Virus record (IMG/VR): IMGVR_UViG_3300050014_001197
Location: 64,001 to 128,000 of that record
Length of the DNA: 64,000 nt
Direction: 5' to 3' (one strand)
Origin: a virus
The position numbers were made by a program, and so were the translations under genes. Below the pieces are notes generated by a model. It did not search any database. It had not been told where the DNA came from and worked only from the letters and a program-made list of their open reading frames with translations. Shown here piece by piece: positions 35,869 through 63,990 of the stretch; within the stretch, counting starts at the first letter, position 1; every line of letters begins with the position of its first letter.

Positions 35869-36641
35869 TACCAGATGGCCTACATTTAACGTTTAAAGAT
35901 CTTCATGACAATGATTGGCTTGGAGTTATCACGAACAATATTGATCCAACTTTTTCAGGTCGATGCCAAATTCGTGTGTATAGGTTAATGGATAATCTTA
36001 ATGCAGCAGATCTTCCCTGGGCTGTACCAATCAACTCTACAATTTTTGCAGGAGACGGAGCAGGATCATTATCAATTCCTAAGATAGGCCAGATAGTCCG
36101 TATCCAGTTTAACAATGGAGATATTTACTCGCCTGAATATACAACTATTCAAAATATAGATACGCAATTAATACAAAGGATCAAGGATGATTACGATGGA
36201 ACACATGTTTTACTTTATGATCCCGATGAAGAATTAACGGCCATTTATCAAAGAGGCAGTGGATTTCAAATATTTTATAGAGGAAGTTTTGTTCAGATTT
36301 CTCCAGATAGTATGATTACAATTCAACATGCTAATCAGGATTCTATGATTCAACTTGATGGGGATAAATTAAATATTGTAACAAAGAATGAAGTTAATGT
36401 TTCTGCTTCAGCTAAAGTTTCTATTAATGCTGATGAAGTTATAGCAAGTGGAAACCAAATAACAAAATTGGGACCAGGCCCCTATTATCATGCAGTTTTA
36501 GCAGAAGTTTTATTTCCTTTATTACAAACTATGGCAACAGCAATAGATTCCAAAGCTCCTTTTACTCCTGGAGTAAATGTGGGGTTGGTTCAGCAAGCAA
36601 AACAAGCAGCTACCTCAACTAATGTTTTAGTTTCAAAATGA
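35865..36641 (+). CDS. Baseplate hub/spike protein, gpV / gp5-N-terminal OB-fold-like
   Basis: LGVITNNIDPTFSGRCQIRVYRLMD...LPWAVPINSTIFAGDGAGSLSIPKIGQIVRIQFNNGDIYSPEYT parallels the gpV/VgrG OB-domain GVVxDNxDPxxLGRVKVRxP...WARVxxPxAG...GxxxxPxVGDEVLVxFxxGDxxxPxVLG. Confidence 0.55.
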   Translation: MIPDGLHLTFKDLHDNDWLGVITNNIDPTFSGRCQIRVYRLMDNLNAADLPWAVPINSTIFAGDGAGSLSIPKIGQIVRIQFNNGDIYSPEYTTIQNIDTQLIQRIKDDYDGTHVLLYDPDEELTAIYQRGSGFQIFYRGSFVQISPDSMITIQHANQDSMIQLDGDKLNIVTKNEVNVSASAKVSINADEVIASGNQITKLGPGPYYHAVLAEVLFPLLQTMATAIDSKAPFTPGVNVGLVQQAKQAATSTNVLVSK

Positions 36642-41506: not shown

Positions 41507-42244
41507 ATGAAAAAACTTGTTTGCGAATCCCTAGAGGAATTATATGGAACCGATCAACCTGAAATAGAATATTCAGGTGGTGAAAAAGCTGCTATATCAA
41601 GAGGTAATGATGTTATAACCAAACCACAACTAGCTGCGATGTATTTAGCTGCTAAAGATGCTATGGGAAGATCAGAAGATACTCGAGGTAGAGGCGATAG
41701 CGGAATGACACGTAATGCACTAAAAATGGGCAAAGAAGAGAATACAGATTTCCAAAAGCTATCTGCTCCAAGACTAGGAGATGTATTGGGTCTCAAACCT
41801 CGTACGGTTAGTTATACAATATCTAAATTTAGACTTTTATTACAAGGAAATCGTGAAGGAATCTTTGGCAATGATTTATATGATAAAATAATAAATGCGT
41901 TTGATGAATTTAAAGGAATGGAGGATCAAGGTCTTTCTGGAGAGTTATACTCATTAGCCAGCGAAGCTGTTAATATGGATGCAGGTACAGAGATATCCGA
42001 CAAATGGGCTGAAGAAACATCGGATCAAGGTAGAAAAACAAGAGAAAAAATTCAGAAAAGAAATGCGAAAATTATTCAAGCCACCTATGATTTATACAAT
42101 CAACTCAGAAGAGTTTTGGGTGAAAAAGCACCAAAGGCAGTTGTTAATAAACTTTCCACAGAATATAAGTTGTCCCCCGAGGATCTTCGCACAATAATTA
42201 AGACCAATCTTAAGAATGATCCAAATTTAGCCAGAAAATTTTAA
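41507..42244 (+). CDS. Hypothetical protein with a variant leader N-terminus (MKKLVCESLEELYG)
   Basis: The N-terminus is shared with 54100..54732 (MKKLVCESIEQLF) and resembles the family leader up to E-S-L. Confidence 0.4.
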   Translation: MKKLVCESLEELYGTDQPEIEYSGGEKAAISRGNDVITKPQLAAMYLAAKDAMGRSEDTRGRGDSGMTRNALKMGKEENTDFQKLSAPRLGDVLGLKPRTVSYTISKFRLLLQGNREGIFGNDLYDKIINAFDEFKGMEDQGLSGELYSLASEAVNMDAGTEISDKWAEETSDQGRKTREKIQKRNAKIIQATYDLYNQLRRVLGEKAPKAVVNKLSTEYKLSPEDLRTIIKTNLKNDPNLARKF

Positions 42245-43734: not shown

Positions 43735-45144
43735 ATGAAACTAGTTAGGGAAAATATTCATTTTGAACGTGGAATAGACCCCAAAAAATCTATGAGAATT
43801 GGTCTTGTCCAAAAATGGTTGTCTTTAAAAAAAGGGGATATTTTAAAAATAATAAAAGAATTTACAACCGATTCTCAACATGAAATTAGGGATGATTCCC
43901 GCTATCATATTTTTCCGAAAGGGTATTATCTTCAAATTAATACAGACTCTGAATTATATGATGATGGTTGTATCGGATTTACAGCTTATCTCGGAGATAA
44001 AAATACTCGAACTTCTGATGATATTTTTATCTGGGGAACTCCTCTTCAATTAGAAAACCTATTAGAATTAGTTCCGAGAATGCAAGAAGCTCAGTATTTT
44101 ACAAGAGGGGTAGAACCCAAAAAATCTATGACTATTGGTCAAACTTATTTAGACATAAAATTTATTGAAGAAACCGATTGGTGGGTAACTTATAATCCAA
44201 AAGAATATAAAATTATTGATTTAATAAAAGATTATAAAGGATTTCCAATATTACTTATGAGTTCAAAAGTTCCCCAAAAGGTAGAGGATGAGGGGGAAAC
44301 TTATTTTGCCGGGGAAACTTATTATATAGGAACTTCTGCATTTATAACAAAATTGGGGGGAGAGGTATCAAAAATTCCAGAAAAGGCTTTGGAAAAAGTC
44401 AAAAAGGCTATAGATGCTCATATTAATAAAACTAATGAGTCCCAAAATTTTGAAAGAGGACAGGATCCTAAAGATAGTATGAAAATAGGGAGAGTAGGAG
44501 AACGTGCTATTAAAAAGGTCCTAGATCTATTGGTTGAAATAAGAGGAGGGGAATATAAAATATCTAATGTTTTTCCTTATTCACTAGGTATTATCGAAGG
44601 AACATATTTTATGCCCCCGGGATATGATAAAATTTTTAGAGCAGATAATTTTTTTATTCGATATTATCCTGCTAAAGCATCCACAGAAATAGAAACCCAA
44701 GAAGATTATTTTTCTTATGGCTATCGTATTGAGGGAAAAATAATGAAAGAGAAAATTCTCGCAACTGCTGAAGAAGGATTAACAGAAATTCTTAAACAAT
44801 TAACTCCGTTACCACATGATCCAGTTCGGGAAGTTTATCACTTTCAAAGAGGAATGGAACCCAAAAAGTCTATGAGAATTGGAAAATATACTCAACCATA
44901 TAAAAAAGGGGATAGGGTAAAAGTTTGGATACCCAGTGAGAAAAGACTTGTAGAACTTAGAATAAATGAGGATGAGGACACAGATTCGAATGACAACCCA
45001 ATAACGAAAACCATGCTTTCAAATAAAAAACCTGCTTGGAAAGTTAGAAGAATTTGGGTTCGATATTTAGGAGAAATCCGAACAGCTAATTATGCCATTC
45101 AACCAGAAAATCCAGACGAAGATAGATGGATTATGCACCAATAA
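43735..45144 (+). CDS. Leader-motif family protein with four motif-initiated modules
   Basis: MKLVRENIHFERGIDPKKSMRIGL; YFTRGVEPKKSMTIGQ; QNFERGQDPKDSMKIGR; YHFQRGMEPKKSMRIGK. Confidence 0.6.
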   Translation: MKLVRENIHFERGIDPKKSMRIGLVQKWLSLKKGDILKIIKEFTTDSQHEIRDDSRYHIFPKGYYLQINTDSELYDDGCIGFTAYLGDKNTRTSDDIFIWGTPLQLENLLELVPRMQEAQYFTRGVEPKKSMTIGQTYLDIKFIEETDWWVTYNPKEYKIIDLIKDYKGFPILLMSSKVPQKVEDEGETYFAGETYYIGTSAFITKLGGEVSKIPEKALEKVKKAIDAHINKTNESQNFERGQDPKDSMKIGRVGERAIKKVLDLLVEIRGGEYKISNVFPYSLGIIEGTYFMPPGYDKIFRADNFFIRYYPAKASTEIETQEDYFSYGYRIEGKIMKEKILATAEEGLTEILKQLTPLPHDPVREVYHFQRGMEPKKSMRIGKYTQPYKKGDRVKVWIPSEKRLVELRINEDEDTDSNDNPITKTMLSNKKPAWKVRRIWVRYLGEIRTANYAIQPENPDEDRWIMHQ

Positions 45145-50136: not shown

Positions 50137-50433
50137 TTAATTAACGTTTACACTATCTTTATCATGTGCTATAGAAAAAGTCTTTTTAATATACTTAACT
50201 TGTTCCAAAATAAATGTGATCATTCCTTCAAGTTGAGCAAAAAGAGGTTTCTGTCTTGGATTTGCCCAAAGTTCCTGAGAAGTCATCTTTTGAAAAATTT
50301 TTCCTTGATATGGATATCCAAGATTTAAATAATTATCAGAAAGATGTTTTGCTGAATTCAGATAAGAAGATCTGACCCTAAATCTCTGACTTTTGCTACT
50401 TATAGCATTTTGTTTTTGAGTTAGATTTGCCAT
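50137..50433 (-). CDS. Small baseplate-module protein
   Basis: ORF coupled between the gp6-like gene and the giant protein. Confidence 0.3.
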   Translation of the reverse strand: MANLTQKQNAISSKSQRFRVRSSYLNSAKHLSDNYLNLGYPYQGKIFQKMTSQELWANPRQKPLFAQLEGMITFILEQVKYIKKTFSIAHDKDSVNVN

Positions 50434-52328
50434 TATAAACTAGATACAATATTTTTATTTTGATTACTATTGAAATTAACCGGAGTAATACCTCTTAGAT
50501 TAATATTCACAGTTGAAAGACGATCTTTAGCAACTGAGTCATCATAAGTAATTCCATTAGAACTTTCAAATCCACCACGAATAAGAGGATAAAGATCTTT
50601 AACAGTTACTTTATTATTAAAAGCATCTGAAACATATCTTTCAAGAAGAACGTCTCCGTAATCATCAATTCCATATCCATTTCCATAAATTTGGAAATTA
50701 TTTTTATCTGCATCAAACCAAACGGAGACAGAATCTACTCCATCAATCTGTTCAATAATTCTTACAATATCGGATTGAGGAATTCTATCTCTTCTAGTAT
50801 TTTTTAAGAAATAATCAGAAGTTTTTGAAATTATATCCTCCCTAATATTATTTAATTCATATCCTTCATAAATAATTAATACAACATTTAAAACAAACCT
50901 CGGATATTTAAGAGTCATAATAGCATTATCTACAGTGATAATTCTTTGACCACTTTCTTCGATTAAGTCCAGAATTCCTCTTTTTTCCAAATTAGTTAAT
51001 TGAAATGAATCTAATCCACATGAAAAATAATTCTGATTTGCTGGGATTCTTTGATTTACATCAGGAACCAAATAGAGATAAACCGTATTGTCATCTTTTT
51101 TCTGTTCATCAACCTGACCTTGCCAATAGGAAACTTGATTTTGAGCATTATCTAATTCTGTTTTCTTTGTAAGAGATTTAGATGAAGAAGCTCCAACTGT
51201 TGCTAAAAGTGTACGATATTGTTCTTGAATATTTTCAAAAGTAGTTTTAGCCTGATTATATTTATCGAGAGTAAATTTATCTTCGAAAGTTGCAAATCCC
51301 GGAATAGCATCTACAATAGTAAACATATTTAATTTACTTAAAAAGTAGATATAATTGTTTGGATTTGCTAAAACAAAACTTCTTGACATATGAGGAGCTA
51401 AGAGACGAGTTAAATAAACAGGTTCTTCTTGAGTTCCAAATAAAACGTCTTTTTGAATAGCTACTCTAAGTATTTTATTGAGATCGATTTCTTGGCTATT
51501 AAGAGAATATCCTTTTCCTTCAAATTTCCAATTAGTAGTGGTTTTGGCTTCAGCAGTTCTAATATTACCTGCTTCACCATCCGTTAAAAGATATTCGGCA
51601 AGAATAGTAGCTCCAAGAGGAGGAACTGACCCATTATAACCATTGCCAAAGAAAATATCAATGCCTCCAGTTTGACCAGTTTTTACCATTACACTTTCTT
51701 CTCTAAAATTCATATCAAGAATTGAATCTTTGCTTGCCCATTTTTTTCCATTTACGTAAATATTTACAAAGAAATTATCAATCATAGATCCCTTCTTAGC
51801 CTGAAAATTAAAACTTTGCAATGCATCCCCCGTTCCTGTTGCTTGCTGATATTCTAATTTACCCTGGACTATATTTACATCAACATAATTCGTAATTGAA
51901 CCTAAATCTAAACGAGTCTCATTTCCAGGAAGAGTTATTGTATATGTAAGCCCATTAAAAGTAGAAGTAAGTCTAGTATAATTAGGAATAACTGCTGTAT
52001 TTCCATAAATATCGAGTTTTTCTCCATTGTAATATAATCTAAGAGTTCCTCGTGCGGCTACCCCTCTAGAAGAATTATGACCTGTTAAAGATGCAAGACC
52101 TTTTACACTTTGGGATCTAGAAGCAGTTAAAATATTTAACTCTGTAATAGAATCTTCAACATAGTAAAGAATGACTCTTCCTAGATTCAAAAGAACCTGA
52201 AGAAGTTGCCCCATTGGGGATGCCATAGTAAAATACTGACCAGCATCATCATATGTTTGTTTTATGAAATTGATTGAATCTTGATAGAGTTCACTGAGCC
52301 TAATTCTTGCTACACGTATTATATTCAT
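50433..52328 (-). CDS. Baseplate wedge protein, gp6/gpJ-like
   Basis: 631 aa, immediately downstream of the gp25-like gene. This is the canonical W-J order, and the size is close to T4 gp6. Confidence 0.45.
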   Translation of the reverse strand: MNIIRVARIRLSELYQDSINFIKQTYDDAGQYFTMASPMGQLLQVLLNLGRVILYYVEDSITELNILTASRSQSVKGLASLTGHNSSRGVAARGTLRLYYNGEKLDIYGNTAVIPNYTRLTSTFNGLTYTITLPGNETRLDLGSITNYVDVNIVQGKLEYQQATGTGDALQSFNFQAKKGSMIDNFFVNIYVNGKKWASKDSILDMNFREESVMVKTGQTGGIDIFFGNGYNGSVPPLGATILAEYLLTDGEAGNIRTAEAKTTTNWKFEGKGYSLNSQEIDLNKILRVAIQKDVLFGTQEEPVYLTRLLAPHMSRSFVLANPNNYIYFLSKLNMFTIVDAIPGFATFEDKFTLDKYNQAKTTFENIQEQYRTLLATVGASSSKSLTKKTELDNAQNQVSYWQGQVDEQKKDDNTVYLYLVPDVNQRIPANQNYFSCGLDSFQLTNLEKRGILDLIEESGQRIITVDNAIMTLKYPRFVLNVVLIIYEGYELNNIREDIISKTSDYFLKNTRRDRIPQSDIVRIIEQIDGVDSVSVWFDADKNNFQIYGNGYGIDDYGDVLLERYVSDAFNNKVTVKDLYPLIRGGFESSNGITYDDSVAKDRLSTVNINLRGITPVNFNSNQNKNIVSSL

Positions 52329-52773: not shown

Positions 52774-53583
52774 ATGTTTATTGCTGAATCCGTATATCCA
52801 TTTCTAAATGAGGAATTTCTTGCTCATGAAATTCTCAATGAACGTTTGGATATTAATTCTATTAAAGATAAAGTTAAAAAAGCTGCTATCATAGCATCCT
52901 TATTTCTATTAACAGCCAGTGATAAAGGATTTAAGGAACTTCCTTCAAAACAGGAAGTACAAAATACTCCTCTGGTTCTTCTTATGGCTAAAAATCCAGA
53001 ATTAACTAAATCTGAGGTAGATGAAAAATTTGATGATCTTTTTAATCTTTATTTTTGGAAAGAAAAGGAGCAAGGGACAAAACTCAATTATGATATTCTT
53101 CAAGACCCGCTAATCTTAAAAACTAGTAATAATGGTTTAAATTTTATACGAGGATATGAAAAGCTTTATCTAGAAGCTTATGAAATGGGAGATGGTATGA
53201 TAACCATTGGTTGGGGTCATGCTGAGCCCGTAGGCATCTCTAAATACGTTATAGGACAAAAAATATCTAAATATGAAGCTGAGAGACTTTTTAAAAAGGA
53301 CATTAAAAAGACTGAAGATGGAATAAGAAGACTTTTTAAAAAATGGATGGGTCAGGGATTAGTTGTTCAGATTTCTCAAAGTATGTGGGATTCTATGATT
53401 TCAATGGCATTTAATATGGGAGTAAATGGTCTAAGAGGATCTGATATAGTTCAAGCTTTAAAACAAGAAGATTATCTAACAGCAGCAGATAGTATTTTAA
53501 CTACGAATACTGATGATAAATTTCCTGGATTAGAACCAAGAAGAGAAGCTGAAAAGAAATTATTTTTGAAGGGATTAATTTAA
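52774..53583 (+). CDS. GH24 (T4-lysozyme-type) lysozyme with an N-terminal extension; tail-associated lysozyme or endolysin
   Basis: EKLYLEAYEMGDGMITIGWGH matches E-x(8)-D-x(5)-T-I-G-x-G-H of T4 lysozyme ([21 protein letters not shown]). Confidence 0.7.
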   Translation: MFIAESVYPFLNEEFLAHEILNERLDINSIKDKVKKAAIIASLFLLTASDKGFKELPSKQEVQNTPLVLLMAKNPELTKSEVDEKFDDLFNLYFWKEKEQGTKLNYDILQDPLILKTSNNGLNFIRGYEKLYLEAYEMGDGMITIGWGHAEPVGISKYVIGQKISKYEAERLFKKDIKKTEDGIRRLFKKWMGQGLVVQISQSMWDSMISMAFNMGVNGLRGSDIVQALKQEDYLTAADSILTTNTDDKFPGLEPRREAEKKLFLKGLI

Positions 53584-54095
53584 TGATATTTTTTCAGAAG
53601 CTTTTGAAATTTTTCATCAAAAATCCTTAGTGAAGAAGATTGAGAAGTTTGGAAAAAATCTTCTTTTATAGGTGGCTCATTTACAAAAATTGAGTTTCTA
53701 GTATTTAAAGTTTCTCCTTTAAGACTTATAACTTTTGCCCAATAAGTGCTACCAACTCCATTTTTTCGAAGCTCGTATTGATAATTACCAACTTTTGCGG
53801 AAGCAAATAAATTATCACCGGATCCACTAGTTAGTTCAGAATCTTCTTGAAATTGTATTTCGTATTTTTTTCGTAAGAATTCAATAATAATTAATTCAAT
53901 GACTTTCTTAAGCCCATCTATTTTATGTCTTATTGTCCCAAAAGTAAATTCATCATCAGGTGCTTGAAGATTTTTAATAATAGGGCCTAAATAATTATAA
54001 TCTCGACTTAAATTTCGAATTTTCTCATTGCCTATATTCATAGCATCCTTTGGATCTTGCCCTCTTTCAAAATTCAATCCTTCTCGTACTATCAT
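53580..54095 (-). CDS. Leader-motif family protein (MIVREGLNFERGQDPKDAMNIGN)
   Basis: N-terminal family motif. Confidence 0.55.
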   Translation of the reverse strand: MIVREGLNFERGQDPKDAMNIGNEKIRNLSRDYNYLGPIIKNLQAPDDEFTFGTIRHKIDGLKKVIELIIIEFLRKKYEIQFQEDSELTSGSGDNLFASAKVGNYQYELRKNGVGSTYWAKVISLKGETLNTRNSIFVNEPPIKEDFFQTSQSSSLRIFDEKFQKLLKKYH

Positions 54096-54099
54096 GATT

Positions 54100-54732
54100 C
54101 TAATATTTTAATTTTTTGAATCCTTCACTTGTAATTGAGGCCATTTGCCATGCTCTTTTTACTTGATAAGCTGGATCTTTAGAACCAAATCCCGGAGCAA
54201 CATGTTTTGCTTTGAATAAAGGAGATTTAATATGTTCCTGCCCAAAATCTTCTTCAGTTCTTTGTTCGCTTCTTTGATAATCTTTTACAGAAACTAATTC
54301 CGTTTTAAATCCATCTGGTCTTTTCTGATCTTTTAATTTCTGCCAATCCATATCTAATACTTCAATCTTCCATTTTTTACCTAAAATAGGCTGGCCAAGT
54401 TCTTTTTCAAGATCCGAAATAAGAAGCAAAAAATCTTCAGCATCCGGATATTCCCAAAAACTAATCATTTTTTTATTTAGCCATACTCTTCCTGAGAAAA
54501 ATCTTCCCTGTTTCCTAATCCCCTCTGGATGCGTTTGCCCTGCTGGTCCTAAAATAAAATTACCTTCTTCATCATACCAAAAAGGATGAGCGTCTTCATC
54601 TGTAAAATAAGGAGATTTAGATGGATCACTATTCACGGGTTCCCCAAATCTATTATAAGTAAGATTAGGAAGAGAAATCTCATCTGGGCTCTCAAATAAT
54701 TGTTCTATGGATTCGCAAACTAGCTTTTTCAT
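54100..54732 (-). CDS. Hypothetical protein with a variant leader N-terminus (MKKLVCESIEQLF)
   Basis: Shares its N-terminus with 41507..42244. Confidence 0.4.
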   Translation of the reverse strand: MKKLVCESIEQLFESPDEISLPNLTYNRFGEPVNSDPSKSPYFTDEDAHPFWYDEEGNFILGPAGQTHPEGIRKQGRFFSGRVWLNKKMISFWEYPDAEDFLLLISDLEKELGQPILGKKWKIEVLDMDWQKLKDQKRPDGFKTELVSVKDYQRSEQRTEEDFGQEHIKSPLFKAKHVAPGFGSKDPAYQVKRAWQMASITSEGFKKLKY

Positions 54733-55907
54733 TCCAAATCATCTAATTTATTAATGAGCGAATCATTTATATCTTCCATTGTCATATCTCCGCTATAACT
54801 TTGTGGAGGATTATATTCAATTTTATCTTCTCCGGTTGCTAGTGTAAATGATAAAAGTTTAATACCTTCAAAATCACAAGGAGCTACAAAAAATTCTTTG
54901 CTTTCATCATATTTAGCATCCCCAATATGATAATGCTTTTTAATAGCTCTTTGTAAATCCATATAAGCTTCAGATTCATCAGCAAGAGCTGTAGCTTCAC
55001 TATAAGCAAATCTAACAGCATCACAGAGATCTGATAGATCTTCATTTTCCTGAATTTCTTCTAAAAGATCATCTATTGTTTCCGTTTTATTCGGGTCTGC
55101 TCCCATTTCAATAGCTTTATCTTTTAGATCTTTTATAGCAGGGATTTGTTTTCCTTTTTGCAGAACTCTATTAATAGGCCATGCAAAATCCGTAATGTCT
55201 TTATATTCTCTTACGCCATAATCAAAATATTCATAAGAACCATCTCCAGATAAAACTGCTTCGATAAATTGCGAATTTACATCTCTTGAAGTTGTATCAA
55301 AATAATCTGCAAAATTACCCCAATCCTTAAAATAAAGAACATAACTATTTTCTGTAAATTTATATTTAAAATTATCATCTTTAAACGGAGCATAGGGAAT
55401 CCATTCAATTTCTCTATATGCTAATTCAAGATAATCATTTTCATCTAGATCCTTATTATATTCTGGTTTTGTAATAAGAAATTTGATCCATTTGTCTCTG
55501 GTTTCCCTGTCTAGCTCTTCTTCTCTTCCTTCATTTAATAAATATGAAATCCATAAAGATGGGCTTGAACTTGTTTTATCATCTAAAAAATTTCTAATAG
55601 TTTCTTCAATACCTATTCCAAGAGATTGCTTAGGAGTTAATCCTCTTTCGAAATCAAGGGATTCCCTAACTACCCCAGATTTAAAATGGCCATGATTAAG
55701 AAGAGCTTGAACCCAAAAATCCCGGGTTTCTTCTCCTAGCTGAGGGTCATTAAGTATATTTGGAATCCATTCTTCTGGAGAATCCCAGCCTTTTTCTTTT
55801 GCATACTCCCTAACTTTTTTAAGAAGACCGATTTCAAGAATTTTAATAAGTTCTAATTCTTGCCTATCCTCTCGATCGTAATCGATATATTCTTTTACCA
55901 AAGCCAT
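54729..55907 (-). CDS. Hypothetical protein with an internal leader motif (ESLDFERGLTPKQSLGIGIE)
   Basis: Motif at residues ~82-101. Confidence 0.45.
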   Translation of the reverse strand: MALVKEYIDYDREDRQELELIKILEIGLLKKVREYAKEKGWDSPEEWIPNILNDPQLGEETRDFWVQALLNHGHFKSGVVRESLDFERGLTPKQSLGIGIEETIRNFLDDKTSSSPSLWISYLLNEGREEELDRETRDKWIKFLITKPEYNKDLDENDYLELAYREIEWIPYAPFKDDNFKYKFTENSYVLYFKDWGNFADYFDTTSRDVNSQFIEAVLSGDGSYEYFDYGVREYKDITDFAWPINRVLQKGKQIPAIKDLKDKAIEMGADPNKTETIDDLLEEIQENEDLSDLCDAVRFAYSEATALADESEAYMDLQRAIKKHYHIGDAKYDESKEFFVAPCDFEGIKLLSFTLATGEDKIEYNPPQSYSGDMTMEDINDSLINKLDDLE

Positions 55908-56206
55908 TATTCATCAACTAATTTAAATCCAGTTTCTTCTTCTAATTGTTTTTCATATTTATAAAAAACATTATCTCTTATCTCTCTTGCATCTGATTCC
56001 CTTTGGCCATCATCCCCAGCTTCTTCATAAGCTTGTCGCATATCAACATTAATTTGTCTTATGAAATATTCCGCTTCTTTTTTATTTCTTAAAAACCCCT
56101 CAATTCGATAATCATTACATAATTTAAGAATAATTTTCCTACCTAGTTGTAAAGTATCTCTAGGATCTTTTCCTCTTTGAAAATCTATGGTTTCTTGAAC
56201 TATCAT
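55907..56206 (-). CDS. Leader-motif family small protein (MIVQETIDFQRGKDPRDTLQLGRK)
   Basis: N-terminal motif. Confidence 0.5.
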   Translation of the reverse strand: MIVQETIDFQRGKDPRDTLQLGRKIILKLCNDYRIEGFLRNKKEAEYFIRQINVDMRQAYEEAGDDGQRESDAREIRDNVFYKYEKQLEEETGFKLVDE

Positions 56207-56646
56207 ACAACAATACGACCGCCAACGTTACAGATTTTTTTGATTTCGTCAACAGTAAATTTATTTTCATTTTTCTTAATATAGAAATCCCCACTAACCT
56301 CTTCAGGACATCCATCAAGATTCACTAATTTATTCCCATCTACCATAAAATCACCCTTCACTATTTTTGGACATCCATTCATAGATTTTAAATAATTATC
56401 TCTTATAAAAAAATTTCCACTGCAAATATTAAATTGAATATCTTCTGGAATTTCATAAATAGCTTTATTTTGAGGAATAACCACTTCTTTTGTATCAATG
56501 GTCCACTCTGAATTGATCCTAGCTCGAGAAAAAGGAATATATTGCTTTAACCATATATCAATTTCCTTTTTCTTACCTAATGACAAAACTTCAGAGGGGT
56601 TTCTTCCCCTCTGAAATTCTAGTAAGCTTTCAAGAACAAGCTTCAT
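56203..56646 (-). CDS. Leader-motif family protein with C-terminal LRR-like GCP repeats
   Basis: MKLVLESLLEFQRGRNPSEVLSLGKK, then L-x-x-M-N-G-C-P-K-I-V-K-G-D-F / L-V-N-L-D-G-C-P-E-E-V-S-G-D-F repeats. Confidence 0.5.
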   Translation of the reverse strand: MKLVLESLLEFQRGRNPSEVLSLGKKKEIDIWLKQYIPFSRARINSEWTIDTKEVVIPQNKAIYEIPEDIQFNICSGNFFIRDNYLKSMNGCPKIVKGDFMVDGNKLVNLDGCPEEVSGDFYIKKNENKFTVDEIKKICNVGGRIVV

Positions 56647-56661
56647 ATATTAAGTTTTATT

Positions 56662-58281
56662 TTAGAAAATATCTTTGTATTTAACAATAAATCTATCTAC
56701 GCCTTCTTTGTATTTGTCTCTTCCTTCAACTTCACCAAGTTCTTCGTGAATATAAGGATGAATATCAATCATCATTTTTAATCCTCTTGTTGCAAGTGAA
56801 CCATTATCAAGACGAATAAGATATGTTACAAAGTTATTAAATTCATCTGGAGTAATATCTCTTCCCCTTGTTGATGTACAAACGAGAGAGATAAGAGCAT
56901 TAGCTTCTGACTGATCAAATCCTGAACCAGCTTTTTTAGGCATACGTGCCTTATCTGGGTGGGTAAGAACTTCTTTAATATCTTCTTTTTTGAATGATTC
57001 AAGAAGTCTTAGGAATGTCTGAAATTCTGTTGCAATATCCATACCAACATCAGAACCAACTACCTCAGTAATATCCTTATTGGTTACATTATAGCCTTCA
57101 TCTTTAGCATCTTGCATAAGAGCAGCTATATTATTTGAAGCAGCTTCCCATGAACGAGGAGATGCAAAGATACTCTTTTCCGGATCATCATCAAGAGTAT
57201 AGAAATATTCTTGATTAAATTCCAAGAAGTCAACAATACGAGAATCTATTGGACTTTTAGAAGGATCCGTTTTATTATATTCTTGCTTTTTACCTTTTTC
57301 CTGAGTTTTTTCTGGGGTTTCTCTTCCTTTAGTTGAAGCCCATTCTTTCCATCCTTTGAAATCAGGAATATAATTTATCTGGGAAAATCTATTTCCTAAA
57401 GCTGTTGAAAAGTTCTGAACGCTTTCTGAATCATCTCCTGCTCTATTAGATGCTGAAATAATTGACCATTTAGAACCTAAAATTGCATCACCAATTATTC
57501 TTTCATCGATAAGTTTCAAACAAGTATTTTGAACTGAACTAGGTGCACGAGAAAGTTCATCTAAGAAAAGAACCCCGCCATCGCCAAAATTAGCAATCTC
57601 ATCTCTTCTTTTATTTTCAGCTGCATCATCGCTTTTAATGTAAACAGGAAGCCAGGATTTAGGAATATCCCTTGCTTTAAGTTCATCATCTATTTTATAA
57701 GTTGCAGGAAGTGACCAATCATCAGGAGCCATTTTAGATGTTTGTACATCAATAAGTCTTCCTTGAGGATTTACTAATTCCAAAACAGATTTTACTATTT
57801 GTGTTTTTCCTATCCCAGGTGCTCCCCAAATCATAACAGGTTTAATTCTGGGATATTTAATACACATACGAACCCTTCTTTGAAATCCTTTTTTATCTAC
57901 ATTTGGTACATTTTTATCGGGATGATCAAGAGAGATTTTAGCCTCATTAACAACACTTTCTTGAACATTATTTCCTCCTCTTTTTTGAATAAGCATTTCT
58001 CTAGTAAGAGATCCTAATTGGGGGTTTACCTCAATATCTGATTTTGATGGAACATAAGAAATTCCTTTAAAAAGAGCGCCTTCTTTAACCAGGATACCAA
58101 TATTAACAGGAGCCATAGCTTCTGTAGTTGGTTTGCCTTGGAACATAAAAAAGAAGAGTTTTCCTATTTTTTGGAAAAATTTCTTAATAGCTCCCCCGAT
58201 TTTGCTAAATATAGCTTCATTTAATTCTCCCTGGTTAATTTGAAAATCCTGAAGGGATTCAAATACTAATTGTTTCTTCAT
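56662..58281 (-). CDS. MoxR-family AAA+ ATPase (AAA_5-like)
   Basis: Walker A MIWGAPGIGKTQIV, Walker B GVLFLDELSRAP, sensor-like region. N-terminus MKKQLVFESLQDFQ resembles the family leader. Confidence 0.6.
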   Translation of the reverse strand: MKKQLVFESLQDFQINQGELNEAIFSKIGGAIKKFFQKIGKLFFFMFQGKPTTEAMAPVNIGILVKEGALFKGISYVPSKSDIEVNPQLGSLTREMLIQKRGGNNVQESVVNEAKISLDHPDKNVPNVDKKGFQRRVRMCIKYPRIKPVMIWGAPGIGKTQIVKSVLELVNPQGRLIDVQTSKMAPDDWSLPATYKIDDELKARDIPKSWLPVYIKSDDAAENKRRDEIANFGDGGVLFLDELSRAPSSVQNTCLKLIDERIIGDAILGSKWSIISASNRAGDDSESVQNFSTALGNRFSQINYIPDFKGWKEWASTKGRETPEKTQEKGKKQEYNKTDPSKSPIDSRIVDFLEFNQEYFYTLDDDPEKSIFASPRSWEAASNNIAALMQDAKDEGYNVTNKDITEVVGSDVGMDIATEFQTFLRLLESFKKEDIKEVLTHPDKARMPKKAGSGFDQSEANALISLVCTSTRGRDITPDEFNNFVTYLIRLDNGSLATRGLKMMIDIHPYIHEELGEVEGRDKYKEGVDRFIVKYKDIF

Positions 58282-58300
58282 TGTAGTTCAAGTTTTATTT

Positions 58301-59020
58301 TTATACTTTATTTATCTTTTCTTTAAATCTTATTATTTCTTTGTCTGTTAATTCCTCTTGAGCTTTGTGATGATTAATTAAAAAATCTAAAATTGGTTTC
58401 CAAGCTTCTATTTGAGGACCCATTATTCCTACTTTACTTAATTTAGAAGCAACTAATTGTATGGATCTTTTAATCTTAACTCTTGGATCTTTTATTAATT
58501 CTTTTATAATAGCAATATATTGATTAGAAGCAGCTTCTAAAATAATATAATTGTCATTTAAAACTGTATTAGAATTCCTATCCAAGGATTCTTTACTATC
58601 GGCTGGATTAACTCTCGGATCCTCCATAAGTCTCTTAACAACTTCCAATTGATTATTTTTAACAGCTTGATATAAAGCTTCATTATGATTATCAGCAGGA
58701 TTTACCCTATCATCTTTTAAAAGAGCATCTACAGCTTCAACTGATCCTTTCATAGCAGCAATAGCAACAACAGCATTTTTTCGATATGCTGGATTAGCTG
58801 AAGGATCTGAAAGAAGAAGTTTAATAATATCGGCTCTTCCCATTAAAGCTGCTTTATAAAGAACTTCATTTTTATTTGCAGGATCTAATATCTGATGCCT
58901 TTGTTGAGGAATATTGCTTACTTCTTTTACAAAATCGCCAATAAGTTTTTCTCTGCCAATACCTATTTCGGCTTTGACATCACCCCCTCTTGTAAATCCT
59001 AAGGATTCTCTAACTATCAT
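58301..59020 (-). CDS. Leader-motif family ankyrin-repeat protein
   Basis: MIVRESLGFTRGGDVKAEIGIGRE, then ankyrin repeats (ALYQAVKNNQLEVVKRLMEDPRVNPAD...). Confidence 0.55.
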   Translation of the reverse strand: MIVRESLGFTRGGDVKAEIGIGREKLIGDFVKEVSNIPQQRHQILDPANKNEVLYKAALMGRADIIKLLLSDPSANPAYRKNAVVAIAAMKGSVEAVDALLKDDRVNPADNHNEALYQAVKNNQLEVVKRLMEDPRVNPADSKESLDRNSNTVLNDNYIILEAASNQYIAIIKELIKDPRVKIKRSIQLVASKLSKVGIMGPQIEAWKPILDFLINHHKAQEELTDKEIIRFKEKINKV

Positions 59021-59943
59021 AACTCCCCCGCTCCTTTGTAACTATTGAATTTTTTTATAGAAGATTCCTTCATATTAAAAATATTATCTCTAACCCTTTG
59101 ATTAGTTAAAAGTAATTGACACATTTTTATATTTTCATTAGACAAAGCAGCAGCTAAAGCCCAATTTGCTTTGCTTGCTGGATTTACTCTTTTATCATTT
59201 AATAGTAATTTTACAACCTCTAAATGCCCTTCTTTTGCTGCTCTTCTAATACAGAAATTTGTTTCGTCACTTTTATATCTTTTACCACTTTTTGTATTAT
59301 CGCCTGGGTTAACTATTGGGCTTGCTAATAATAATTTTACCAATTCTGCATCTCCTTGTTGACAAGCATTTTGAATAGGTTCGTTATAAGTATGATTCAA
59401 GTTTGTTGCTCCATTTTCAATCCCCCATATTTCTAATTCTCTTTCCCCTCGAGTGGATCCTAAAAGAAAAGCTTTATTTGCTCCAAGTTTTTTTGTTTCT
59501 TCAAGTGTTCTCTTTGAATCATACTGACGAAATTCATTAAAGGTAAAATCGTTTATCCATTTTGGATTACTCCATATATCTTCTGCTCTTCCTAAAACAA
59601 AAAATAAGTTTACCCAGAATCCAGCGTGATGCTCTAATTTATTTGGATTAAATGTTAAAACTTTATCCATAATTTCTTTTAGAATTTCACGAATAACAGA
59701 ATTTTTATTTTTATGCTCTTCAGCATATAATCTTAGAAATTTCTTTGTATCAATTCCATATAAATTATTTTCAGTTAACTGAGATAGAGATTGTGGGATT
59801 AAATCTTTATCTTTTACCGGATCCCAAGCAAATTCATTCCTTATTTTCTCTATAATTTGAAGAAAGAGTCCTGCTTTTCCTATTCTCATTGTTTCAATAG
59901 GATTTCCGCTTCGAGTGAAATTAATACTTTCCCTAACAATCAT
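59017..59943 (-). CDS. Leader-motif family ankyrin-repeat protein
   Basis: MIVRESINFTRSGNPIETMRIGKA, with C-terminal ankyrin repeats (IRRAAKEGHLEVVKLLLNDKRVNPAS). Confidence 0.55.
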   Translation of the reverse strand: MIVRESINFTRSGNPIETMRIGKAGLFLQIIEKIRNEFAWDPVKDKDLIPQSLSQLTENNLYGIDTKKFLRLYAEEHKNKNSVIREILKEIMDKVLTFNPNKLEHHAGFWVNLFFVLGRAEDIWSNPKWINDFTFNEFRQYDSKRTLEETKKLGANKAFLLGSTRGERELEIWGIENGATNLNHTYNEPIQNACQQGDAELVKLLLASPIVNPGDNTKSGKRYKSDETNFCIRRAAKEGHLEVVKLLLNDKRVNPASKANWALAAALSNENIKMCQLLLTNQRVRDNIFNMKESSIKKFNSYKGAGEL

Positions 59944-61700
59944 TATCCTAAATTAATTTGTTTACCAAATGGCTGTTTCCATCCTGGATTACCATAAATT
60001 ATCCAAATAAATTTATGAGCATAAGGTGGTTTCTTTGGATTAGGAGCACCCCCATCAGTCATAAATACCAATAGGGAAACTCGGTCTTTTAAATGTTCAT
60101 GAACCCAATCAAGAGCTTTCTGGAAGTCTGTTCCCCCTCCCCCGCTAATTCCTTTAGGAATATAAGGTTTTCCCATTCTTTTAATAGTTTGAACACTCTT
60201 ATCGTCAACCCCATCATCAAAGAAAGCAATAGTTATTTTGTTTACTCTTTTTGAAAAGATAATTTGATTTATTTCATTAATAATTTTATTAAGAGCTTCT
60301 TGACCCATAGATCCGGAAACGTCAACTAAGACGACTATATTTTCCATAGCATCTTGCTTATGCTTTTCTCCATAACGAAGATATTCTCCGCCTAGATGTT
60401 TTTTATTTCCAATTTTTTGATAAACCTCAGGGGAAAGTGCTGTCGCAACATATCTTCTAAAAAGATTTTTCCAGTTAACATCCCCTCTATGGAGACGATA
60501 AAGAGCTTTTACAAGGGATTCTCCCTTTCCCCGCCCTCTTCCTTTTTGTCCCTTTTCAGCACGGTCAAGCATCTTAGATCCTTCAACTCTCCATTTATCG
60601 GTTGGATTTTCATCAGGACCCATTTCTCCTTCACCGTATCCGCTAGCTTTAGCAATTTTCTTTCCCATTTCAGGAGAAATAATGCCGCCAGTTCCTGCAG
60701 GATCAAATTCTCCAGTTTGATCTAATGTTTCATCATATCCTTCATCACCAGCTCCCCCTACACCGCCACTATTATCTCCTTCACCTCCGCCTTCTCCTCC
60801 TTCACCTTCTCCTTCACCATCTCCCCCATCACTAATAGAAATTAATTCTTCTTGTTTATATCCTTCATTAATTAATCTAGGATAAATAAAAGCTTCATTA
60901 AGGGGATTTACTTCAAAAGTTCCATCTGCGTTAACAGCTGTAACAATTCCCTTTTGACCTGTAGCTTTAATTTTAACTTTGGAACCAACCGCTAAAGGCT
61001 GTTTTCCTCCCCCTTTTCCTTTTCCCCCTGGTTGTCCTTGACCTCCAGCTCCCCCGCCAGATCCTCCTTCTCCTTGATTTTGTCCTTGATTATTCTTTGA
61101 AGCTGGATTAGGTGGCATTTTGGGAATTGTTTTCTTAAGTTCGTCATAAATAACTTCAACGGGTATATTAAGCCACTTAGCATCATAAAGACCTCCAAGT
61201 TTTTTAACAAATTCTTCATCAAAATCATTTAAAGTATCAACGATAATATCATTTATTTCATAATCCCCTGCAATATTAAAAAGAGAAGCAGGTTTGCCGT
61301 CTGAAGTTTGAACTATAGCATTTCTAGTTTTCATTCTATCCATATGAAGAAGTACGCAATGCATAATCTCATGAACAAGAACAAATATTATTTGATTCCA
61401 GCTTAATTTATTAGCAAAGCTAGGATTAACAAAGAGACGAGTTCCATCAGTTGCCATAGTAGGAACTAACCATGTATAAATTGGAGTAAACTTATGAACA
61501 TAAGGAGCAAATAATTGGCTTTGAGAAACGATAGCAGTTTTAGCACTATCCATTTCGGTCTTTAAATGTCTCATGTCTATTTTAGTTCCATCTTTAGCAA
61601 ACACGTATCCATAATCCTCTATTTTAGCGGATTTCGGAATTTCTAATCCTCCCTTTGCTTCAGATATAAAATTTCTTAATTTAGGATAAAATTCTTTCAT
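59943..61700 (-). CDS. VWA-domain protein with an N-terminal HExxH metallopeptidase-like domain (DUF2201/CoxE-like partner of MoxR ATPases)
   Basis: VHEIMHCVLLH (HExxH), MIDAS motif VLVDVSGSMG, and two Gly-rich linkers. Confidence 0.55.
   Translation of the reverse strand: MKEFYPKLRNFISEAKGGLEIPKSAKIEDYGYVFAKDGTKIDMRHLKTEMDSAKTAIVSQSQLFAPYVHKFTPIYTWLVPTMATDGTRLFVNPSFANKLSWNQIIFVLVHEIMHCVLLHMDRMKTRNAIVQTSDGKPASLFNIAGDYEINDIIVDTLNDFDEEFVKKLGGLYDAKWLNIPVEVIYDELKKTIPKMPPNPASKNNQGQNQGEGGSGGGAGGQGQPGGKGKGGGKQPLAVGSKVKIKATGQKGIVTAVNADGTFEVNPLNEAFIYPRLINEGYKQEELISISDGGDGEGEGEGGEGGGEGDNSGGVGGAGDEGYDETLDQTGEFDPAGTGGIISPEMGKKIAKASGYGEGEMGPDENPTDKWRVEGSKMLDRAEKGQKGRGRGKGESLVKALYRLHRGDVNWKNLFRRYVATALSPEVYQKIGNKKHLGGEYLRYGEKHKQDAMENIVVLVDVSGSMGQEALNKIINEINQIIFSKRVNKITIAFFDDGVDDKSVQTIKRMGKPYIPKGISGGGGTDFQKALDWVHEHLKDRVSLLVFMTDGGAPNPKKPPYAHKFIWIIYGNPGWKQPFGKQINLG
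60745..60835. repeat. Low-complexity Gly/Glu-rich coding segment
   Basis: GGDGEGEGEGGEGGGEGDNSGGVGGAG. Confidence 0.5.
61005..61095. repeat. Low-complexity Gly/Gln-rich coding segment
   Basis: GQNQGEGGSGGGAGGQGQPGGKGKGGGK. Confidence 0.5.
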
Positions 61701-61720
61701 ATTTTTTATATTTTAATATT

Positions 61721-63694
61721 TTAATTCCAAATTGTTCCTTTTACTTTAACCCTTTTCCTAATCTCTGATTCTTTCCATTTTTTAGCTCCTGGTTGAGCTG
61801 AGTAAATACTAAAATCTCCATCTACTTCTTTTGGAAATCCTCTCAGATTTGTGAAAATATTATGAGCTACATAGAAACCTCCATATATTTTATTAAAATG
61901 AATAAAATAAGGGAAATTATTTATATGAGCTCCTACAAGATTTATATCTTCTAATACATCAATAGTTCCATCTTTATTTATTCTATATTCTATATAATGC
62001 TCATTAATTTCATCCTGATATATTCCATAGGACTTAAACCAATTTATTATTTGAGCATGAAATCCTAAATCCATAGCTTCCATAGGATCTTCGTTTCTTT
62101 GAAAATCCATAGATTCCTTTATCATATTATCATCAGACCAAATTATTCCGGATTTTACTTTACAAACTTTTATAACATCTTTTCGAGTAAAATGCCCGGG
62201 ATTCCCTTGACAAAGAAAATTTCCATCTATTCTTTTTGGCGCAAATTCTAAAGAGCTAAGTTGATTACCAAAGCATTTGAAATTCCCTTTAAGATCGGGA
62301 GTTTCAAGAACCTGTGTAGGACAACCTCTTAAAGTTTTTAAATTATTATCTGAAATATCAAAACCTCCACAAACTTTTCCAAATTGAATATACGGAGGAA
62401 GTTCTTCTATATCTTTATTTCTTAAAGAAACTACTAAATTAATTTCCGAAGGAATGTTTATAATAAGATCCTTGTCGATAATTGCATCCTCGTATAAATC
62501 TTGTTCCTTTAACCAAGTTTCGATAAGAGCTTTTTTACCGATGCCCATTGAACTTTTAGGCTCTATTCCTCTTTCAAAATTCAAAGATTCCTTAATCGGA
62601 TGTTTATCTAAATAAGCTTTTACCTCTTCTACAGCTTCTTTTGGAGTTTTATAATAATCAGATCTATAATCTGGAGCCATTGCAATGTATTTTTTTCCAT
62701 CTCCATCCCCGTCGCTTTTAGTTTTCATTATTAGGATGGGTTCTCCTCGAAATTTTTTGATTAATCCTAAAATATTAAAATTTTGATGAATAAGATCCTG
62801 AGGTAATTCCCATATAGTTTCTTCAATAATTTTTCTAGTAAGAACTTTATCTCCTATTTCCATAGCTTCTTTAGGATCTATTCCTCTTTCGAAATTCTGA
62901 ACTTCATTCATGCTTCTTGGGAGTAATTTGAATTTTTCTCTAAATTGTTTAGGAGTTCCTGCAAGATATCCAAATCTATCTTGTTCATTTTTTCCATTAT
63001 AATCTTCCATACTAGAAAAATAAATATATCGAAGAACCCATTCTTTTGTAGAAGCATTATCTAATTCTCGAACTTTTAAAATAGTTCCACCCGGGAAATA
63101 ACCATGAGCGTGCGATTCCGAAATTCTATCGTTTTTTATTCCTACCCCTTTTGGCACGTATATTATATCACCCTCTTGTAAAGTTTCCCATGTGGGTATT
63201 CCAATTTCCATAGCTTTTTTAGGATCCTGACCTCTTTGAAAATTAATACTTTCTTTAATAGATTCATTTTTTATATTTTCATATATTCTCATGACAGCCA
63301 AAATGATAGAACCATTTTCAAGTTCCTCCTCATATTTTTCAAAAACATCAGAATCTACTAGTTTTCTTGATTTTATAGATATTAAAGCACAATCTTTTTT
63401 CCCATGATATTTATCTGAATGAAATGGTTCAAAACTATAATAAGAAATAAATCTAATATAATCGCCATCAGATAAATTTATATAAAGTTCCGCATTGGTT
63501 TCATCAGTACTTCCTTCAATAGATAAAATTTTTACATCTCCATAGTGCCATTTTTTAGCTTTAGTTTTTTCTGACTCTTCCCATCCTTCAAGATCTCCAG
63601 AGAATTCAACATCAAAATGGAACATACCAATATCCATGGCAGTCATAGGATCCATTCCCCTCTCAAAGTTAATATTTTCGCTAACTAATTTCAT
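61721..63694 (-). CDS. Leader-motif family protein with five motif-initiated modules and LRR-like GCP repeats
   Basis: MKLVSENINFERGMDPMTAMDIGM; ESINFQRGQDPKKAMEIGIP; VQNFERGIDPKEAMEIGDK; ESLNFERGIEPKSSMGIGKK; ESMDFQRNEDPMEAMDLGF. Also L-K-T-L-R-G-C-P-T-Q-V and N-L-R-G-F-P-K-E-V-D-G-D-F repeats. Confidence 0.6.
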   Translation of the reverse strand: MKLVSENINFERGMDPMTAMDIGMFHFDVEFSGDLEGWEESEKTKAKKWHYGDVKILSIEGSTDETNAELYINLSDGDYIRFISYYSFEPFHSDKYHGKKDCALISIKSRKLVDSDVFEKYEEELENGSIILAVMRIYENIKNESIKESINFQRGQDPKKAMEIGIPTWETLQEGDIIYVPKGVGIKNDRISESHAHGYFPGGTILKVRELDNASTKEWVLRYIYFSSMEDYNGKNEQDRFGYLAGTPKQFREKFKLLPRSMNEVQNFERGIDPKEAMEIGDKVLTRKIIEETIWELPQDLIHQNFNILGLIKKFRGEPILIMKTKSDGDGDGKKYIAMAPDYRSDYYKTPKEAVEEVKAYLDKHPIKESLNFERGIEPKSSMGIGKKALIETWLKEQDLYEDAIIDKDLIINIPSEINLVVSLRNKDIEELPPYIQFGKVCGGFDISDNNLKTLRGCPTQVLETPDLKGNFKCFGNQLSSLEFAPKRIDGNFLCQGNPGHFTRKDVIKVCKVKSGIIWSDDNMIKESMDFQRNEDPMEAMDLGFHAQIINWFKSYGIYQDEINEHYIEYRINKDGTIDVLEDINLVGAHINNFPYFIHFNKIYGGFYVAHNIFTNLRGFPKEVDGDFSIYSAQPGAKKWKESEIRKRVKVKGTIWN

Positions 63695-63990
63695 ACATCC
63701 GAATCATCTGCTTCTACATCACCAACGACGTTACATTTTTGTCTAATATCGTGTTCCGTAAATCTCTTTTCATTTCCCATCACATAAGCATTCCTAACTA
63801 TTTTTCTAGGAAATCCTTCTAGAGAAGTTATTTTATTCATTTGGCAAGAAAAATATCCTATAACAAAAAGAGGAAATCTTTCTAAAGAAACTATACCACA
63901 ATCATCAACATCAAAATCTTTTGTAGATTTAAATTCGATATATTCTGGTAACTTACCATCTGGAAATAAATCTGGTCTTTGCTGATTCAT
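63691..63990 (-). CDS. Small LRR-like (GFP/GCP repeat) protein
   Basis: ITSLEGFPRKIVRNAYVMGNEKRFTEHDIRQKCNVVG parallels the C-termini of 56203..56646 and 61721..63694. Confidence 0.4.
   Translation of the reverse strand: MNQQRPDLFPDGKLPEYIEFKSTKDFDVDDCGIVSLERFPLFVIGYFSCQMNKITSLEGFPRKIVRNAYVMGNEKRFTEHDIRQKCNVVGDVEADDSDV

Follow-up and report, generated by a model that had tools for sequence, protein, structure and literature searches.

The question raised by this locus is what a predicted ATPase and a predicted metallopeptidase do in the middle of a cluster of virus genes whose products begin with a common short leader. The locus lies in the IMG/VR virus record IMGVR_UViG_3300050014_001197, of which positions 64,001 to 128,000 were analysed; this stretch of 64,000 nucleotides (nt) is called the window here. 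The first gene encodes a MoxR-class AAA+ ATPase and the second a protein in which a zincin-like peptidase domain is joined to a C-terminal VWA domain (the VWA/peptidase). An earlier note on this DNA had proposed that the two might form a dedicated machine for the proteins carrying the leader (the ESLNFERG family). The pair is a diverged form of the gp24/gp25-type cassette of phage N4, already known from many phages, and by analogy with related systems its role is probably that of a chaperone-protease in virion maturation or assembly which is not specific to the leader proteins (probability roughly 0.6).

The ATPase matched Pfam AAA_5 (E=4.2e-10) over the full length of the profile, positions 1-139 of 139, with a score of 40.2 bits where the cutoff is 22, and PHROG 1297, annotated as 'ATPase' (E=1.3e-48). 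Conservation was read from an alignment of 66 homologs, in which N279/R280, R298 and R376 were invariant, like the Walker residues listed in Table 1, and all catalytic residues predicted for this class are intact. The AlphaFold2 (AF2) model of the protein had a confidence score (pLDDT) of 82.8. Foldseek placed it closest to two genuine MoxR proteins, NorQ (9qh4, 9qh7, 9qh8) and CbbQ2 (6l1q), with target-normalised TM scores of 0.54-0.60, and FtsH was also among the top matches. A PDB search by sequence gave nothing significant for this protein or for its partner.

The VWA/peptidase matched Pfam DUF2201_N, a 'putative metallopeptidase' (E=8.7e-22, 78.4 bits against a cutoff of 23.2), together with DUF2201, described as 'VWA-like' (E=5.4e-17), VWA_2 (E=4.1e-7) and PHROG 1314 (E=1.6e-60); DUF2201_N and DUF2201 occurred together in all 101 homologs. 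In an alignment of 63 homologs, spanning N4-like to Lak-like forms, H110, E111, H114, H119, N142, A144, D146 and N150 of the peptidase domain were invariant, and the residues of the metal ion-dependent adhesion site (MIDAS), D460, S462, S464, T524 and D549, were invariant or nearly so, the first three lying in the DVSGSMG motif at residues 460-466. The peptidase and MIDAS residues were also kept in the N4-like, RaK2, Lak and LR756500.1 proteins. With their predicted active sites intact, both proteins look active.

The AF2 model of the VWA/peptidase (pLDDT 78.9) showed a Rossmann-like VWA fold, nearest to complement VWA, NorD and Midasin MIDAS domains. Fold searches with the two-domain model returned VWA-domain matches only, and no solved structure was matched for the peptidase domain because the VWA domain dominated these searches and masked it. 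When the peptidase domain was searched in isolation, DUF2201_N (PF13203) was recovered (E=1.5e-18), with weak M48, SprT-like and M50 matches at the HExxH helix (E 0.06-0.2). The evidence for a zincin is therefore the Pfam profile together with the invariant motif and these weak matches. Between the two domains, the Gly-rich stretches at residues ~201-232 and ~290-320 were predicted to be disordered, and the strands of a small beta-barrel insert (residues 241-266, pLDDT ~90) stood between flanks below 50; one homolog carries the JGI label 'YodC (DUF2158)'. PHROG 1314 and RefSeq (e.g. NC_070847.1 gp041 and NC_019526.1 gp481) name the VWA/zincin protein 'HNH endonuclease'. This is evidently a misreading, since no nuclease domain was detected and Pfam finds only metallopeptidase-like and VWA domains.

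These results, in which the main family matches are far too strong to be due to chance, bear out most of the domain reading in the earlier note. The MoxR ATPase with GAPGIGKT and VLFLDE lies exactly where it had been placed, the MIDAS-containing VWA domain, the HExxH motif and the Gly-rich linkers were all recovered in one protein, and of the families it expected AAA_5 and DUF2201/DUF2201_N were found, VWA_CoxE only weakly. The likeness to MoxR-VWA modules was also seen in the structural matches to NorQ/CbbQ and to the VWA domains of NorD and Midasin. The HEIMH motif, which had been called N-terminal, does lie within an N-terminal domain of ~170 amino acids (aa), but at residue 110 and not at the very N-terminus.

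A mechanism can be proposed by analogy with NorQ-NorD, CbbQ-CbbO, Rea1/Midasin and the p618-p892 pair from Acidianus two-tailed virus (ATV). The ATPase would build a hexameric MoxR ring, and the VWA protein would be its adaptor, the MIDAS metal gripping an acidic residue of an extended client peptide, as MIDAS domains are reported to do (PMC7159879). ATP hydrolysis would then remodel or pull the client while the attached zincin cuts it, so that the whole could work as a two-polypeptide, split FtsH-like ATP-dependent chaperone-protease. In NorQ-NorD, CbbQ-CbbO, RavA-ViaA, CoxD-CoxE, BchI-BchD and Rea1/Midasin alike, a MoxR/AAA_5 ring is coupled to a client-engaging MIDAS-VWA adaptor, and the best structural matches of the two window proteins come from this group (NorQ/CbbQ2 for the ATPase, NorD and Midasin for the VWA domain). 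However, those systems are cellular and serve metal insertion, activase functions or ribosome assembly, and their VWA proteins have no peptidase domain. The likeness to FtsH is functional only, namely an AAA+ motor combined with an HExxH zincin: FtsH has both domains on one membrane-anchored chain and belongs to another AAA+ clade and another peptidase family (M41).

Table 1 Features of the ATPase and VWA/peptidase locus in the window (positions counted from the first letter of the window)
Feature	Position	Strand	Remarks
MoxR-class AAA+ ATPase, 539 aa, N-terminal extension and helical C-terminal region	56662..58281	-	
ATPase N-terminal tag, aa 1-22, MKKQLVFESLQDFQINQGELNE	58216..58281	-	[LIV]-x-E sites V6-F-E8↓S and L20-N-E22↓A
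ATPase N-terminal extension, ~145 aa, megaphage versions only	57847..58281	-	N4-like matches start at ~residue 146
Walker A GAPGIGKT, aa 153-160	57802..57825	-	G153, G156, K159 invariant
Walker B VLFLDE, aa 237-242	57556..57573	-	D241, E242 invariant
Ankyrin-repeat protein, 239 aa, leader	58301..59020	-	Ank_2 E=8.9e-13; leader HMM 33 bits
Ankyrin-repeat protein, 308 aa, N-terminal ESLNFERG-type leader	59017..59943	-	Ank_2 E=2.8e-14; leader HMM 39.3 bits
VWA/peptidase, 585 aa: zincin-like DUF2201_N domain, Gly-rich linkers, beta-barrel insert, helical region, C-terminal VWA (DUF2201)	59943..61700	-	
Peptidase domain core, ~aa 30-200, HExxHxxxxH...NxAxDxxxN	61101..61613	-	pLDDT 85-96
HEIMH, putative zinc-binding/catalytic motif, aa 110-114	61359..61373	-	
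SH3/YodC-like beta-barrel insert, aa ~238-266, between disordered Gly-rich linkers	60903..60989	-	Pfam MSSS E=0.0025
VWA domain, ~aa 454-585	59946..60341	-	Complete MIDAS D460-x-S462-x-S464, T524 (GGGT), D549
Eleven co-directional genes including the pair, operon-like	53580..63990	-	Gaps -4 to +20 nt
T4 gp23-like major capsid (or gp24-like vertex) gene, 3' part	3..1145	+	Pfam Gp23 E=6.8e-32

The distribution of the pair was examined beyond the window. In tblastn searches of GenBank phages, the ATPase was found in 404 records and the VWA/peptidase in 123, mostly N4-like Schitoviridae and RaK2-like jumbo phages. The two genes adjoin each other in the N4-like Stenotrophomonas phage Philippe (gp040, the ATPase, and gp041) and are neighbours in RaK2, where the annotation likens them to N4 gp24 and gp25. 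They are also adjacent and in the N4 order in Lak-A1 and the 462-kb LR756500.1, and directly adjacent in three relatives of the window (L012-L014). When 80 IMG/VR loci were anchored on an ATPase homolog and the fetched flanks were scanned for VWA/DUF2201, ~73 had the partner in the flank, usually within ~50-450 nt. Six loci from metagenome-assembled genomes were found in a genome collection with a sub-alignment of VWA homologs, and the ATPase lay immediately upstream in all four that had upstream DNA. The two genes are thus neighbours in nearly every genome that holds either.

The pairing has also been described before. Iyer et al. (2021) reported a MoxR-vWA chaperone/co-chaperone pair with an N-terminal metallopeptidase in group 2.2 jumbo phages, and proposed that it takes part in the assembly of virions, with proteolytic processing (PMC7824862). 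The domain architecture and the proposed role are those of the window pair; that description is computational, with no mention of tags, extension or an association with tagged paralogs, and the window belongs to a Lak-related clade. Because the cassette is known in this way, a phage MoxR-VWA-HExxH pair is not novel as such, and the view in the earlier note that no such pairing was known in phages has to be given up in the light of the N4 gp24/gp25, RaK2 and Lak examples. The N4 proteins (PHROG 1297 and 1314) are homologous to both window proteins and have the Walker, HExxH and MIDAS motifs in common with them, again from neighbouring genes. However, they are shorter (~310-420 aa and 400-460 aa): neither the ~145-aa extension of the ATPase nor the tags nor the Gly-rich/SH3 insert is present in them. 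The gene order differs too: in N4 the ATPase gene is directly followed by the VWA gene, whereas in the window the order is VWA, two ankyrin genes, ATPase, with the VWA partner 1.66 kb upstream of the ATPase on the same strand. The VWA-first order is common to the clade at ~35% identity or more. What is new in the window version is the inverted gene order, a recent ankyrin insertion, the Gly-rich/SH3-like insert and conserved N-terminal tags resembling a capsid-targeting sequence. Among phage gene pairs without an assigned function, few are conserved as widely as this cassette; it belongs to the core gene set in N4-like phages and occurs in RaK2-like, Lak-like and other huge phages as well. Once the window pair is recognised as this cassette, a novel machine specific to the leader can no longer be claimed.

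Whether the pair nevertheless serves the leader family in the window was judged from the distribution of the leader. According to this explanation, the MIDAS would grip the Glu/Asp that is invariant in the leader, whereupon ATPase and zincin would process or load the leader-bearing cargo. The pair is indeed embedded in the leader cluster, as the earlier note had seen: two leader-bearing ankyrin genes lie between the partners, an ESLNFERG leader or a short MKKLVxES tag is found on 9 of the 11 genes of the operon-like array, and the setting of the pair within this tightly spaced, tagged array is kept in six related genomes. The leader residue E5 is invariant, which suits the binding of MIDAS domains to acidic residues, and the first eight residues are common to the ATPase and the leader. 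The module (ESLNFERGxDPKxxMxIG) is N-terminal and also occurs in 3-5 internal copies in 36638..38047, 43735..45144 and 61721..63694, with [VIL]-x-E in front of every copy; those inside proteins resemble module boundaries or processing sites.

Since the leader is too short for tblastn, a hidden Markov model (HMM) was built from 50 leader copies (~25-aa profile xxVxESxNFERGxDPKxxMxIG). It found 25 copies in the window at E<=1e-3, at 11060, 16085, 35566-37661, 42253-44821 and 54098-63694 on both strands, but even at E=100 it did not match the ATPase, the VWA protein or 54100..54732. The ATPase does begin with MKKQLVFESLQDFQ, as had been noticed; what it carries is the 8-residue tag and not the leader. 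Some leader genes lie 10-45 kb away from the pair, on both strands. Outside the window, 12-15 matches were found in the relatives with at least 73% identity in the VWA protein (L004-L007 and L011), 2 in L012 (58%) and 8 in L013 (47%), and none in L014, Lak-A1, LR756500.1, the N4-like phages and RaK2 (47% or less). Similarly, the closest three of the 80 IMG/VR loci (L015-L017, ATPase identity 78-80%) had 11-15 matches and L019 (55%) had 3, while the remaining 76 had none. The pair is thus far more widespread than the family. The earlier note had proposed co-occurrence as a check and named separation in either direction as a sign against its view; the pair without the leader family, one of the two directions, was found in most lineages.

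The ankyrin genes, which were inserted recently, split the pair only in relatives with at least 73% identity; at 47-58% the VWA gene is directly followed by the ATPase gene. In L004-L006 the ankyrin gene homologous to 58301..59020 is fused to the upstream ankyrin gene. Between the same genome pairs, the ATPase/VWA pair is 73-80% identical and the flanking leader genes only 41-62%, variably fused or split. This slower divergence, together with the occurrence of the pair without the leader family elsewhere, indicates an old, slowly evolving cassette around which a fast paralog family has expanded, and the ESLNFERG family is a later, clade-specific expansion. Because the leader is confined to a narrow clade, the ankyrin insertion is limited and the ATPase is missed by the HMM, service to the leader family alone is unsupported as the general role of the pair, and we consider a machine of that kind unlikely; a lineage-specific functional link between the pair and the family may still exist.

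The products around the pair have further features. The proteins from 56203..56646, 61721..63694 and 63691..63990 (all on the minus strand) have in common a C-terminal Cys-containing repeat (…GCPxxVxGDFxCxxNxLxSLxGxP…) which by eye resembles a leucine-rich repeat (LRR) and had no Pfam match. When the 657-aa multi-module leader protein was searched by tblastn against GenBank phages, only this LRR-like C-terminal domain was matched, in two Vibrio phages. The gene at 63691..63990 is probably cut by the end of the window, as its homologs in L004-L006 are ~152 aa long with a full leader, MIVRENINFERG….

A role in the virion is suggested by the surroundings of the pair, which in the window clade form a virion-morphogenesis block. 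In the window and in L011-L013 the genes follow in the order S1-domain protein, T4 gp13-like neck protein, tagged genes and the pair, and beyond the pair come small genes, HSP20 or lysozyme, and gp25-like and gp6-like baseplate proteins. The same assignment was favoured by Iyer et al. for the jumbo-phage pair (PMC7824862), and the virus precedent is ATV. There the MoxR ATPase p618, which is one of the major virion components, binds the VWA protein p892; this partner stimulates its ATPase activity, and p618 has been implicated in virion (tail) morphogenesis (PMC4124505). ATV p618/p892 is, like the window pair, a virus-encoded MoxR and VWA pair; it differs in that the virus is archaeal, the VWA protein bears no zincin, and no close sequence relationship was detectable.

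Several points weigh against a role in virion maturation. The genetic context differs between phage groups: a dCTP deaminase gene is found near the pair in Philippe, and a thymidylate synthase gene in RaK2 and L014. Since the context varies in this way, the assignment to the virion depends on the context of one clade and on analogy, and context by itself cannot fix the function of the pair. Furthermore, literature searches turned up no experimental data on phage MoxR-VWA pairs or on N4 gp24/gp25, ATV excepted, and no biochemical work on a DUF2201_N family member. The zincin-like fold was assigned from sequence, without a match to a solved structure, and peptidase activity, formation of a hexamer and binding of the two proteins to each other are predictions.

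The same differences in context could point to a non-structural role, in which the pair would be a middle-expressed chaperone or protease acting on replication and nucleotide-metabolism complexes or, for takeover or counter-defence, on host proteins. The N4 homologs are middle transcripts (PMC4193335), DprA accompanies thymidylate synthase near the RaK2 pair, dNK does so in L014, and the ankyrin and LRR-like neighbours in the window resemble host-directed effectors. However, in the window clade the neighbours of the pair are neck, HSP20 and baseplate genes, neither protein matched a known defence or anti-defence family (PADLOC gave no convincing defence-family match for either), and virion assembly was the role favoured by Iyer et al. 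This role was judged improbable, and a function in virion maturation or assembly is preferred.

The N-terminal tags suggest how such a function might be exerted. The start of the ATPase (M-K-K-L-V-x-E-S-[IL]-x-E-F) is near-invariant down to 35% identity: among the 66 ATPases, V6 was found in 63, E8 in 65 and E22 (of L-N-E-[GA]) in 64, and residues 1-30 were predicted by AF2 to be disordered. The 8-residue tag M-K-K-[LIV]-V-x-E-[SN]-[LI] is the only stretch common to the ATPase and the leader proteins. Its first eight residues open every N-terminal leader protein as well as 41507..42244 (plus strand, starting MKKLVCESLEEL) and 54100..54732 (minus strand, starting MKKLVCESIEQL), neither of which has the FERG motif; the tagged set is therefore wider than the ESLNFERG family. 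In the window, 12 real open reading frames (ORFs) began with the tag, compared with 1 of 379 internal-methionine controls. The tag is older than the leader family, as L014 lacks the family and only its ATPase is tagged, which is a further point against a machine built for the leader.

Behind the tag, the extension of the ATPase continues with AIKKFFQKIGKLFFF, a basic-hydrophobic segment, and then with a small, confidently predicted alpha/beta domain at aa 35-100; no part of the extension matched Pfam. It is kept down to 35% identity, absent from N4-type proteins, and brings the megaphage ATPases to 510-600 aa. A basic-hydrophobic segment, AIKKFFQKIGKLFFFMF, conserved as KKxGKFF, was seen in the part encoded by 57847..58190 (aa ~30-145), an element that could bind a membrane or a partner.

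In T4, the capsid-targeting sequence (CTS) is MKTYQEFIAE (PMC8442874); its residues 4 and 7 act in targeting and residues 8 and 10 in processing, and the prohead protease gp21 cuts after L/I-x-E (PMC9026906). The ATPases of distant clades begin MRIIKSYSEFITEN or MSKIIKSYPEFLAEN, and these tags are identical to the T4 CTS at Y, E, F, I and E with equal spacing (Y-x-E-F-I-x-E). A CTS-like core was found within the first 22 residues of 13 of 69 non-redundant ATPases, compared with 34 of 1659 other ORFs (2%), many of which resemble tagged cargo, e.g. MEPLKTYSDFIAEG. The megaphage VWA proteins have an N-terminal motif of their own, (F/Y)YPx[LF]x[DN]F[LI]xE, in 37 of 101 against 6% of background windows, and the short forms lack it. 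Tags of the kind seen on the distant-clade ATPases are sometimes also borne by the VWA protein or its neighbours, e.g. in L065 and in LR756500.1, where the VWA protein has MKYIKSYENFIFEN and paralogs have MKYIQTYKDFLIES. In LR756500.1 (L003; 12836..16794 and 28396..29184) and L042 a different paralogous tag, MKYIQTYKDFL(I/L)E, near T4 MKTYQEFIAE, was seen beside the pair and on the VWA protein itself. As in the T4 CTS/gp21 system, proteins that are otherwise unrelated bear short N-terminal tags, and in the distant ATPase clades these keep the spacing aromatic-x-x-F-I-x-E; the window tag itself is diverged (MKKQLVFESLQDFQ...LNE), and both encapsidation and cleavage are predictions only.

The near-invariance of the tag and the closeness of its distant-clade forms to the T4 CTS suggest that the pair may be packaged into the capsid. 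The ATPase, and probably the VWA/peptidase, would then bear T4-type propeptides, enter the prohead core together with the tagged cargo and be trimmed by the prohead protease at [L/I/V]-x-E, to act in the maturing head or, once ejected, in the next host as an ATP-dependent remodeller or protease. This is compatible with a role in virion maturation. The tag has stayed nearly constant while the rest of the ATPase family diverged to 35% identity, V-x-E8↓S and L-N-E22↓G/A are conserved within a predicted-disordered segment and fit the gp21 rule L/I-x-E↓, and the same tags stand on neighbouring paralogs. Moreover, the ATV MoxR protein is a virion component, and T4-like gp23, gp13, gp25 and gp6 homologs are present in the phage of the window. 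On the other side, the motifs are short, their recognition was post hoc, the clade is uncultivated, and the window tag (ESLQDFQ) has no close match to the CTS. The extension is missing from the N4-like and RaK2 homologs, and in RaK2 the annotation gives their neighbours, but not the homologs themselves, as virion proteins. A conserved N-terminus could also serve partner or membrane binding instead. We therefore regard encapsidation as possible but on balance doubtful.

A more specific form of this proposal is that the pair of the Lak-related phages is itself capsid cargo, marked by MKKLVxES...LNE↓G here, by MRIIKSYSEFITE↓N in sister clades and by (F/Y)YP...F[LI]xE on the VWA protein, so that a remodelling protease would be packaged, and perhaps injected, together with diversifying effectors. 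The ESLNFERG leader would in that case be a lineage-specific elaboration of the targeting signal. This version is put forward tentatively, as one that would need some luck to prove right. The tag logic, which is like T4 targeting and cleavage and is common to the neighbouring effector-like paralogs, is a testable addition made by the megaphage form of the cassette. If the tags direct packaging, they would provide a sequence rule that predicts the injected proteome of uncultivated megaphages, and the pair would be a packaged AAA+ protease, for which the archaeal virus ATV is the sole viral precedent.

Other assignments were tried for the pair and rejected. The bpMoxR-type ATPase of the MoxR-vWA ternary conflict systems scored 16.4 bits against a cutoff of 27, and no VMAP, iSTAND or FtsH-type neighbour of such a system (VMAP/iSTAND/FtsH/beta-propeller; Kaur et al. 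2020) was present in the window. For an auxiliary metabolic gene similar to the CobS/CobT cobaltochelatase, the match to PHROG 249 'porphyrin biosynthesis' covered only residues 102-169 of the ATPase (E=2e-5, compared with 1.3e-48 for PHROG 1297). Neither protein was a member of an NCBIfam equivalog family.

The source genome was affiliated with the Lak-related megaphages. Its gp6-like baseplate protein (50433..52328) was 42% identical to those of Prevotella Lak megaphages and was further matched by Tenacibaculum, Sphingomonas PAU, Chryseobacterium and Flavobacterium phages. The G+C content of the window is ~31%. No near-identical DNA was found among GenBank phages, and relatives at 73-87% protein identity were present in IMG/VR and other metagenomic contigs. 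The frame of the capsid gene is open to the start of the window and the N-terminal propeptide falls outside it; because the gene overruns the window start, its propeptide gives no guide to the specificity of the prohead protease. In a scan of the 52-64 kb region, which did not cover Bacteroidota-type promoters, promoter-like and terminator-like motifs were not above shuffled sequences. TAA, TGA and TAG are all ordinary stops in the window, so the standard code is apparently used here, unlike in Lak-A1 (L010), where the ATPase ORF (14281..17067) needs read-through of 9 in-frame TAG codons, which fits TAG recoding. Upstream of the structural block, three plus-strand genes (17730..18662, 20373..21500 and 21801..23204) are non-structural and encode UDG/dNK-like, DNA methyltransferase-like and asparagine synthase-like (Asn_synthase E=7e-34) proteins.

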